63,132 bases of DNA from a virus (taxonomy: Duplodnaviria; Caudoviricetes): positions 1 through 63,132 of the IMG/VR virus record IMGVR_UViG_3300027759_000092; one strand, written 5' to 3'. The translations under genes and the position numbers were made by a program. Numbering within the stretch: position 1 is the first letter of the stretch; each line of letters opens with the position of its first letter. Below, in pieces: positions 38,801-41,800 of the stretch. Below the pieces are notes generated by a model. That model saw only the letters and a list, made by a program, of their open reading frames with translations. It had not been told where the DNA came from and made no database searches.

Positions 38801-41800
38801 AGCCAATTTAGTATCTTGCTTGCCAAGCTTGGCTAGGCCCAAGAAATCATTGATTGGCATGTCAATAAGCTTGTAGCGAGACTTAAAGCCTGTAGATGAG
38901 GCATCTGCCAAGGCTTTGCTATCGAATGCTTCATCAGCACTACGCAAGCTATAGCGGATGTCAGGGTTAAATCTGTCAAAGGTTCCTACATTGCCCGTGG
39001 CAGACTTAATCTGCGTTGGGCTATAGACTGCAAGGTTTTTGATGCCACCTTCACGAACATAGAAACCATCAAAACCTAATTTGCGGATGGCTTGCTGTAC
39101 GGTGCGGTTCTCAATCCGTTCCCAATTACCGGTTCGGATACTACCTTCTTCTTTATTGCCAATCCTACGGCCATAGCTGTCGGTACTATTGTTTAACTCA
39201 TCAACAACTTGCTGTACGTGGGCAGGATTATCGTAATCAAAAGGTTTTTCTGAGTAGACATACACGGGCATAATATTTTGCCCCGTTGTCATGCGACTTT
39301 TTAAGACTGCGCCGACATTATTTTTAACAGCCTCAGTAGTTAACGCTTCATTAACTGTACTTGTGTTGAGTCTATTGAACTCTATTTGGGTTATTTCTTG
39401 ATTATCAAAGGCAAGTTTGATGGCTTCTTTGACCAAGCGTTTTTGCTCGTTTTCCGGCAAAGTATAAAGCAATTCTTTTTTAATGTATTCTTCAGATGCG
39501 CTTGAAAAATCTGCGGCAAAATTAGGATCGTCCGTTAAAAATATAGCGCCCGCCTGTTTGGCTCTAAACTCAGAGATGTCCCGTGCAGTGCCGTGGTACA
39601 TGACTTTTGGCTGACCGGGTTCAACAATCTTTTTACCATCTTCAAAACGTACTGTTGGCTTTGTAACAATCTTGCTATTGCTAAACCACTGTTTAAACTC
39701 TGGGGTATCAGGAGCCTGACGCAGGCTAAAGCGCACGTCTTTAGTCTCACCAAACTCACCAGTGTTGCCTGTGGCTGACTTAACTTGGTTGGCATCAAAG
39801 ACTGCGAGGTTCTTCTTGCCGCCCTCTAATACTTGGAACGAATCAAAGCCCAAGGCCTTCAAGGAGTCTTGAACGTTGGCGCTTTCAATGTATGTCCAAT
39901 CACCATTTTCTAGGCGAGTAGATAGCTCTTCGGCAGTTTTGTAACCATGTCCATAAACTTGAATGCGGTTGGCATTCTCAGGGCTTGTATAGTTATTAGC
40001 CATGTAATCCATGATCTGCTGAACATGATCAGGATTCTCAAAGTCAAAAGGCTTCTCAGCACGTACCCACAATGGATAAATGTATGGCTTTCCTTGTTTC
40101 CTACCAAGGCGTTTTAATGCGGCAAAGAATTCCGCATCGTTAGGATTGGGGCTAACAAAGATTGGTCTGCGTTCAGCAAAGATGCTGAACTCATTAGGTG
40201 AGCCGTGGTACATAACCACAGGACGACCCTCTTCAGTCAAAACGCTGTCACCAAACCAGCGTTTAAACGCATCAGTTGTAGGCGGGGCTTTGCGGTAGGC
40301 CGCTCTTTCTGCGGCTTCGGGTGAACGGAAGAAGCTCTTGAGACTTAGCTTTGGCTTGCTAGTTACATCAGGCTCAATATTAGAATCCGTTGCCCACTCA
40401 GGCATCAACCCAATTTTTTGATCTGCGTAAATAGTATCTTCACCAGATGCGGTTTTATTAAATTCAGCATTGGGGCCAAAATTTACGTCTGAGTTTTGTC
40501 CCCTTGTGCCAGCAGTCATTGCTCTGGCGGCAAGTGGTGAATACATCCTAACGTGAGACTGGAAGGCGTTCTCTTCACCCTCTGCTCTAAATCCAAAACC
40601 TTCCTTAACATGACCATAAAAATCATGCGTTGCTCTAAACACCTCAACTACTCGGGCTTGTCTGCCGGAAATAATAATATCTGTTAAAGCTAAAGCAGGG
40701 TTGGTTCTGATTTGTTTTTCAGTAATGGCATCTTTGCCAAAACCACCATCAGCAGGGAAAACGTAAAGATGATTGTTGTTTATAACATCAAGTATTGCAT
40801 TACGTGGGTTTCCATAAGGATCCCTATTGTTAGGCATAAACTCAATTGTTATGCCCGTTTTAATCATGGCTTCGTATTGAGCAATAGTTTCCTTAGCCCA
40901 AGCGTCGTATGCCTCTTTTACATCTGCCGCAAGCGGTCTATTTAACATGCGGGCATATGTATTAGCCAGCAATGTTGAGAATTTTTTATCTAGTTTGTGA
41001 TAACTAGCCTGTTGGCGATATGGAATTCCCATTTTTTCCGCATACAAAATAGCCGCTTCTCTTGCGGGTATGTAGGGGCCAAATGTAACTTCAACGCCAT
41101 CAACTTTTACTTTTGCTGGTAATCCTTCAACCGGTTCTTCAAGGTACGGATACTTTGCCCTTGTCTCATCATCCAGTAGTTGTATGTCTCTTCGTACTCT
41201 TCGTTGGTCTGGAAGTTCTTGCGCTGAGGCTTTGAGTTTTCCAGTTCTTTGATTTTGTTTTCTAGATCCATACCCTTCTCCTTCTTCAAAATAATTCTTT
41301 ACGGCCCTAGCTTGTGCCGCTACTAATTCATCAGGGTCGTCATAGTACTCGCCGGGGCTTTGAGTCAAAGTTGTGCTGTCATCCGGATCGTAGGACATGT
41401 AAACAACGTCAGGCTCACCATTGTTAAAGGTTGTAAACGTTTGTTTATTCCATCCATCAGGAATGTAGTCTTCATTCCATCTCATGCGGCCAACAGATTT
41501 AAACCCGTTGGCATGATAAATTTCCGGAAGGACTGTATCAAATGCGTCAAGCCTTCTACCACCCTCTTGCACCGCAATTTGAAGCGAGGAATACGTAGAG
41601 CCTTTATGTGGGGGGCTTGAGAATACAGAAACGATATCGTCATTCTTAAGTGCAAAGCCTGCCTTGCCGTCCTTAGTCGTGAACAAACGCATCTTGGCGT
41701 AATCTTCTAAGGGGTATATGTAGACAGCCGCACCATATGGACTAGCGTTTTTAGATGCCTGAATGGCATCTGAATATGTTTCAGCATCCTCATTGCTGAT

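Follow-up and report, generated by a model that had tools for sequence, protein, structure and literature searches.

We describe a small gene that appears to be encoded in an alternative frame within the largest gene of a tailed phage, whose complete 63-kb record in IMG/VR (IMGVR_UViG_3300027759_000092; 63,132 nucleotides, hereafter the window) also encodes a terminase, a portal protein and a virion structural protein. The large gene specifies a polyvalent protein of 3549 amino acids on the minus strand. The element in question, nested open reading frame 2 (ORF2), has 54 codons and lies in the +1 frame of that gene, over the linker between two domains that we term A (the upstream, 'GNAT-like' cassette) and B (the downstream cassette, with the motif FRATHDFYGH). 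Comparison with related phages establishes that the nested frame is conserved, that it is accompanied by start signals of its own and that it is inherited together with domain B. On balance we favour the view that ORF2 is a genuine overprinted gene whose product partners the downstream domain B, as an immunity protein or a chaperone. The features on which the argument turns are as follows.

35867..46516, minus strand: giant polyvalent-protein gene, 3549 amino acids, host to ORF2 and to a second nested frame, ORF1.
41267..41887, minus strand: domain A ('GNAT-like cassette'), residues ~1544-1750 of the giant protein; phrog_2563, with homologues in Limnohabitans phage DC33.
41283-41278, minus strand: Shine-Dalgarno-like AAGGAG, 6 nucleotides ahead of the nested ATG.
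41107..41271, minus strand: nested ORF2, 54 codons plus TAA, in the +1 frame of the giant gene.
41146..41235, minus strand: conserved core of ORF2, codons 13-42, SKPQRKNFQTNEEYEETYNYWMMRQGQSIR, where selection follows the nested frame.
41150..41266, minus strand: main-frame linker, residues ~1751-1789, low in complexity and poorly conserved, overlying the nested gene.
40364..41149, minus strand: domain B, residues 1790-2051, PLxGLP ... FRATHDFYGH ... GEENA ... TRGQN, the predicted partner of the peptide.

The host gene, the largest in the window, is a polyvalent-protein gene as Iyer et al. (2017; PMC5512222) use the term, since its product contains the Pfam domains LPD38 (E 4.3e-36) and ART-PolyVal (E 2.7e-31). 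Phage polyvalent proteins, in the view of those authors, are carried inside the capsid and delivered by injection. ORF2 is present on the minus strand exactly as an earlier reading of the window, made from sequence only, had set it out (...GAAGAAGGAGAAGGGTATGGATCTAGAA...): AAGGAG is followed by the spacer AAGGGT (41277-41272) and by the ATG (41271-41269), and the frame closes with TAA at 41109-41107. It lies fully inside the 3549-amino-acid frame, where it overlies main-frame residues ~1749-1803. Its placement in the linker between the GNAT-like and FRATHDFYGH cassettes was likewise borne out, as homology of the giant protein ends at residue ~1750, the limit of the match of domain A to phage DC33, and resumes at ~1793, where homologues of domain B begin. 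By itself an ORF of this size is no more than chance would provide, because the giant gene contains 13 same-strand ORFs of at least 54 amino acids, every one of them in the +1 frame (94 ORFs of at least 30 amino acids overlie the gene when all frames are listed). What goes beyond chance, judging from the aligned relatives, is not ORF2 itself but the conservation of the +1 frame across them, and it is on this ground that the earlier claim of a real nested gene holds.

Conservation in the three frames was compared in an alignment (A3) of 29 non-redundant sequences, made up of the window and 28 of the 32 unique versions of ORF2 from IMG/VR. The versions left out were L008 and L009, whose peptide is the same as that of the window, L051, a GTG variant of L047, and L055, a near copy of L054; the GenBank version (L006) was also kept out, and the start of L070 was reassigned by choice to an upstream ATG. 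The same alignment fed the profile search and the modelling of the fold and the complex described below. Over the 30-codon core, the nested frame gave a pairwise identity of 0.361 and a BLOSUM62 score of 1.89 per site, as against 0.266 and 0.73 for the main frame and 0.261 and 0.40 for the third frame; stops were absent from the first two frames and numbered 34 in the third. Nucleotide entropy was maximal at nested codon position 3, which is position 1 of the main frame (1.42 bits, compared with 1.08 and 1.12 at the other two), and a control stretch in domain B displayed the normal main-frame pattern (0.30, 0.27 and 1.34 bits). The main frame is open over the core in all 29 sequences and is variable there, being rich in G, R, S, Q, A and P, so that the nested EEYEE, for instance, corresponds to main-frame RRVRR in one phage and to GGVRGG in another.

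A codon-position scan of the whole giant gene was then made against three relatives of ~51% identity, taking as the signature a main-frame position 1 more variable than position 3, with position 3 depressed. The comparison was evaluable in 365 of 704 scanning windows, equivalent to 2210 of the 3549 codons, and within this evaluable part it flagged two regions only, ORF2 and 41852-42181; 7 of the 13 same-strand ORFs of at least 54 amino acids were unevaluable or partly evaluable (0 to 0.93 of their length). Of the changes along nested codons 1-38 that are silent in just one frame, 31 leave the nested peptide unaltered and 16 the giant protein. In three IMG/VR relatives at 88-89% protein identity the peptide is 100% identical, and in one of these both nucleotide changes in ORF2 leave the peptide as it is but change the giant protein. 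A 70% relative retains an open, 59-codon version of ORF2. Taken together, the scores over the core, the codon-position entropy, the gene-wide scan and the pattern along codons 1-38 indicate purifying selection on the alternative frame. The scan was also run with the 88-89% relatives, where its power is low and residues 1291-2050 are nearly identical; its sole hint, a weak one, was at 44117-44266 on the minus strand, where in two of these relatives main-frame positions 1 and 3 change equally (11 and 11 per 50 codons). That stretch overlies a 110-amino-acid +1-frame ORF (44173-44505), and the distant relatives are not evaluable there.

The nested frame also carries signals for its own initiation. 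An ATG or GTG lies within 22 codons of the core in all 33 unique versions of ORF2. When the frame was in addition required to be open from that start, this held for 29/29 homologues, compared with 15.1% of the background; a start combined with a Shine-Dalgarno-like site of at least 4 nucleotides was found in 24/29 (background 4.5%), and with a site of at least 5 nucleotides in 16/29 (background 1.2%). The background comprised 41230 +1-frame positions in the same genes, and since the 29 sequences are related to each other, they do not amount to independent trials. Reading into ORF2 from upstream is excluded in at least 7 of the 33 unique versions, where the nested frame has a stop no more than one codon away from the start. 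At the other end, the nested stop is usually two codons past the main-frame PLxGLPxx motif. Translational coupling was considered as well and was dropped, as the window shows no main-frame start codon near the nested stop.

The distribution of ORF2 was followed in two samples of IMG/VR relatives, 80 of 283 retrieved by domain B alone, in which the peptide profile was run on stop-to-stop pieces, and 80 of 271 retrieved by domain A. A significant homologue of ORF2 was detected in 45 of the 80 domain-B loci, invariably +1 to the giant frame and bordering domain B on its 5' side; the giant frame is open for kilobases across the match, and the nested ORF is thus kept open across relatives in a frame different from that of its host. 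Searching the remainder of the same 80 loci on both strands gave no further matches. Domain A is absent from 35 of the 45 peptide-bearing loci. Conversely, only 9 of the 80 domain-A loci carry the peptide, and in all nine, which are near relatives, domain B comes next. Hence it is to domain B, and not to the GNAT-like cassette, that the peptide belongs, and the sequence-only reading, which had tied ORF2 to that cassette, has to be revised on this point; the structural model described below likewise places the peptide on domain B.

Examples were also found among GenBank phages. In MW202675.1, a +1-frame ORF with AAGGAGG and an ATG reads ...EPKRENFQTQEEYEEALAFFKHR... and is unannotated; domain B of this phage is 38% identical to that of the window, the upstream domain is a different one, and the main frame over the ORF is weakly similar. 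The cultured Planktothrix phage Pag-Yong1 has a homologue of ORF2, again unannotated, within a coding sequence labelled 'large polyvalent protein'. The peptide was not matched in Octadecabacter virus BD1 or Microcystis phage Mel-JY33. A search with a 3-row peptide alignment returned 583 pattern matches, of which tblastn confirmed none, the peptide probably being too short for this approach, and tblastn of a consensus-like library peptide against GenBank phages gave zero matches.

We next consider the proposed partner. In an alignment of domain B with 49 rows (A4; the window and 48 others, with copies above 90% dropped, L049 too short and L082 left out), 41 columns are invariant, including those of HDxxGH, GEENA and TRGQN. 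Its predicted fold is confident, with a predicted local distance difference test (pLDDT) score of 94.2. Domain B had no match in Pfam, NCBIfam or the PDB sequences; in the fold search Foldseek gave no hit at E<=1e-3 and VIA reached a Z of at most 3.0, and ESM Atlas returned viral 'hypothetical protein' clusters only. The domain is widespread in viruses and looks enzyme-like: among its 283 IMG/VR relatives are some standalone genes of ~330 amino acids.

The peptide itself was modelled with AlphaFold2 from the 29-row alignment, at a mean pLDDT of 90.8, as a helix (residues 3-12), a loop with KPxRxxF and a long helix (23-53). When domain B and the peptide were modelled together, the complex scored 0.93, 0.95 and 0.94 (median 0.94), compared with 0.02 for the best of three controls. 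Among solved complexes, 58 of 80 reached the mark used for this score, as did 2 of 110 mismatched pairs, counts that are rough in that our own alignments were used. The runs share at least 84% of their contacts, and the pLDDT of the partner is at least 84. Contacts named in the model involve peptide residues 20-47 and the invariant domain B residues R172, F187, E192, Q218, N219, N231 and Q244. The peptide is thus predicted to bind domain B, where the score expresses the confidence of the model and is not a measurement. No similar solved complex turned up.

Searching 1.84 billion representative sequences with the peptide profile yielded 368 proteins at E<=1e-3, 54 of them at E<=1e-10. Among the best 150 of the 368, 67 have at most 75 amino acids, and many share tails with the nested ORFs; 146 of these 150 begin with M, and many are 49-75 amino acids long. 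The shared motif of ~29 residues, P.R..F.....Y..A...W....G, is also read in the normal frame in other proteins. It occurs there in tandem, with four copies in a PhageMin_Tail tape-measure protein, three in a 930-amino-acid protein, three in a 170-amino-acid protein and two in several smaller ones, and in two library proteins it adjoins a Cys-rich domain. The repeat carriers are library proteins P0096, P0149, P0145 and P0003, and the 170-amino-acid protein looks secreted, judged from its N-terminus. Since normal-frame copies occur in other proteins, the motif is, as far as these sequences tell, a real protein module, and as a repeat module it is undescribed. Pfam, PHROGs and NCBIfam hold no family for the peptide, whose matches are labelled 'hypothetical protein' by their sources, although phrog_8865, a head scaffolding family, matches 4 of the 29 peptides weakly (best E 0.0031). 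An ESM Atlas search with the peptide gave no usable match. A profile scan found a single copy of the motif in the window, and none of the 160 library proteins fetched has it fused in frame to domain A or B.

These results suggest the following scheme. On the mRNA of the giant gene, ribosomes would start ORF2 at its own ATG, served by its own Shine-Dalgarno site, and the product would be a helix-loop-helix protein of ~50-60 amino acids, as the model predicts. According to the modelled complex, the peptide may bind folded domain B on a conserved face beside the HDxxGH, GEENA and TRGQN motifs. Its most likely role would be that of a detachable partner, which keeps domain B masked or held for as long as this is in the producing cell, much as immunity proteins or chaperones do, and which is left behind or stripped off once the giant protein is packaged and ejected. 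Being coded just upstream on the same mRNA, the peptide could assemble the more readily with domain B as the latter emerges. We infer the inhibitor or chaperone role, and the stripping, by analogy with known effector partners.

A number of observations weigh against this proposal. Over the whole of ORF2, single-frame silent changes divide about evenly between the nested and main frames (11/13, 13/10 and 10/12 in three relatives), and nested codons 39-54, which coincide with the start of the conserved N-terminus of domain B, favour the main frame (5 versus 19 single-frame silent changes). ORF2 is missing from 35 of the 80 domain-B loci, among them a whole clade of small standalone domain-B genes, so that domain B can do without the peptide in some phages; five whole but 24-74% complete records of peptide-less phages contained zero copies of it. 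The peptide is scattered over the domain-B tree, where it is present in 26 of the 49 rows and its pattern of presence takes 12 changes to explain, of which well-supported branches force at least 4. Its isoelectric point ranges from 4.6 to 11.1 across homologues. The His and Asp of HDxxGH are missing from the contacts named in the complex model, and the predicted interface is slightly more relaxed in domain B from peptide-less loci (0.18 versus 0.07 bits, one-sided p 0.086). Domain B matches no family or fold, so that the word 'inhibitor' refers to no activity. Finally, short metatranscriptome contigs from four runs in four studies overlap 41124-41274, 41171-41356, 41720-41994, 41976-42178 and other stretches, and hence both nested ORFs; DNA carry-over is possible in these RNA libraries and gaps in them are uninformative, and the contigs place the region in such libraries and say nothing on translation.

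Some of these points would be accommodated if ORF2 were real and its product a generic structural or assembly module, of a tape-measure or scaffold-like kind, that does not act on domain B. The tandem in-frame copies of the motif in the PhageMin_Tail, 930-amino-acid, 170-amino-acid and smaller proteins mean that its role could be generic and not specific to domain B, and the weak match to the phrog_8865 scaffolding family, the 35 domain-B loci that lack the peptide and the marginal relaxation of the interface all fit such a role. However, nowhere in the 160 loci did the peptide occur other than at the 5' edge of domain B, the window has one copy, and the complex with domain B scores 0.94 when the best control scores 0.02; a generic module therefore strikes us as unlikely. 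It is considerably less likely that the nested frame is reached by programmed frameshifting and not by initiation of its own, either because ribosomes shift by +1 out of the giant frame, to make a truncated protein that ends in this tail, or because they start at the nested ATG and then shift by -1 into domain B. In favour of such a route, the nested frame is +1 relative to the main gene, the better-conserved frame changes from nested to main at about nested codon 39, and the nested stop falls just past the main-frame PLxGLP motif. Yet only 1 of the 29 sequences has a canonical X XXY YYZ heptamer in the nested phase (+1 sites, which lack a simple consensus, were not scanned), and the strong enrichment of a start codon with a Shine-Dalgarno-like site points to initiation, as do the versions, at least 7 of 33, with a nested-frame stop within a codon of the start, and the library proteins, 146 of the 150 listed beginning with M and many of them 49-75 amino acids long.

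The 88-89% relatives differ at 0 to 2 of the 162 coding nucleotides of ORF2, with the adjoining stretch also nearly invariant, which is what might be seen if ORF2 were untranslated and its conservation reflected a nucleic-acid element or the composition of the linker. We regard this as very improbable: where peptide identity has fallen to 20-35% the DNA has diverged, yet the motif, the start, the Shine-Dalgarno-like site and the position of the stop are kept, variation is highest at nested codon position 3, the third frame has its 34 stops, and the same motif is read in frame in other proteins. The proposal that the peptide is the cognate inhibitor, or antitoxin, of the upstream GNAT-like cassette has in its favour the adjacency of the two in the window and the general resemblance of a small helical protein to an antitoxin. 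The distribution contradicts it, since domain A is missing from 35 of the 45 loci with the peptide, and the 9 domain-A loci with the peptide, out of 80, are near relatives with domain B next. In addition, searches of Pfam and NCBIfam did not match domain A to GNAT, and the domain possesses a conserved nested ORF of its own on its 5' side in 46 of 80 loci, and we give this proposal hardly any credence. A product of ORF2 that partners domain B remains the reading that we favour.

The nested ORF that accompanies domain A has the following position.

41890..42159, minus strand: nested ORF1, 89 codons, in the +1 frame, MTSDTKKQ...LTREEALKIAKEFGF, ending where domain A begins.

ORF1 shows the same codon-position signature as ORF2, in the region 41852-42181 flagged by the scan. 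Its peptide is 53-62% identical in three relatives and 35% identical (E 3e-8) in Limnohabitans phage DC33. An iterated profile detected ORF1 in 46 of the 80 domain-A loci, in the +1 frame in all of them, and nearly all the rows end within ~70 nucleotides of the start of the domain-A match. The ORF2 peptide profile does not match ORF1. ORF1 is probably the 'first nested ORF' to which the sequence-only reading had referred, so that its observation of two sequence-unrelated nested ORFs at consecutive junctions stands, and the 'design principle' that it proposed for cassette junctions gains support from the pair. Domain A itself had no match in Pfam (E<=10) or NCBIfam, and its matches to PDB sequences were spurious only. 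In one of the three relatives (L099, G007) the ORF1 frame has an insertion of ~33 codons carrying two stops, while the giant frame is open; to judge from this sequence, ORF1 may be split or lost there.

With ORF1 accompanying domain A and ORF2 accompanying domain B, the giant gene thus has two small genes unrelated to each other, each placed in the linker 5' of the domain with which it travels, and each of these nested partner/domain pairs is kept in about half of 80 distant loci. It is quite possible, though we would stop short of calling it probable, that each effector cassette brings its own +1-frame partner gene on its 5' linker, the unit of shuffling then being the nested partner together with the domain. 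If so, giant 'single' genes of this type would be compact operons of effectors and their partners, and more nested pairs may await a systematic survey of frame conservation.

Other features of the locus bear on its recent history. Compared with L002 and L003, which are among the 88-89% relatives, a block at 40400-42650 of the window stands out, in that giant-protein residues ~1291-2050 are far closer than the remainder of the gene; the nucleotide difference is ~4% downstream of ORF2 and ~22-25% in the 570 nucleotides upstream. This pattern suggests that the cassette block (residues ~1291-2050) was recently exchanged. A blastn search of the region against GenBank phages gave zero matches, and promoter-like sites occur at chance level (3 observed, 2.6 expected).

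Polyvalent proteins are thought to be pre-made weapons that are injected with the phage DNA, and how active enzymes can be packed without harming the cell that serves as their factory is a puzzle. Partner genes hidden in the linkers would, if our interpretation is right, provide an answer to it that is concrete and open to test. They would also constitute new, unannotated families of small proteins, comprising hundreds of sequence clusters for which Pfam, PHROG and NCBIfam have no model, and gene callers would systematically miss them. Nested partners offer a natural handle on the function of effector domains such as domain B.

Among known systems, the spanins of phage lambda have a comparable layout, as the Rz1 gene is embedded in the +1 frame of the larger Rz gene and the two products bind each other. 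ORF2 resembles Rz1 in being a small same-strand gene that lies wholly inside the +1 frame of a larger gene and has its own start. It differs in that Rz1 is a lipoprotein with a signal sequence and a lipobox that acts in lysis, whereas the ORF2 peptide is without such features; moreover, ORF2 occupies a linker within a giant gene for a multidomain effector and goes with a single one of its domains, and the two have no sequence relation. The proposed role finds its closest counterpart in the partners of secreted effectors, such as the immunity proteins of colicin nucleases and polymorphic toxins and the chaperones of type III and type VI secretion systems, which are bound in the producer and lost on delivery. 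As in those systems, a small partner is coded beside the effector domain that it binds, the binding being a prediction of the model in the case of ORF2. The known partners are separate, non-overlapping genes, with immunity genes usually downstream, whereas ORF2 is overprinted on the 5' linker inside the reading frame of the effector itself.

The host gene agrees with the polyvalent proteins that Iyer et al. (2017; PMC5512222) describe in its LPD38 and ART-PolyVal domains, its giant size and its context of phage virion genes. Nested genes are not described in the main text of their paper, in which the words 'frameshift', 'overlapping' and 'linker' occur 0 times, and our literature searches, which did not cover the supplements of that paper, found no report of nested genes in polyvalent-protein genes. 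Viral overprinted genes more generally (reviewed by Pavesi 2021; PMC8227390) yield two proteins from one stretch of DNA in different frames. One of the frames is a disordered or low-complexity segment, as is the main-frame linker over ORF2. Overprinted genes are usually de novo orphans, whereas the motif of ORF2 is common to modules that are read in frame elsewhere. Because of this homology, the sequences suggest that ORF2 arose by gene capture, an existing small gene having been bridged by a read-through linker, rather than by de novo birth.

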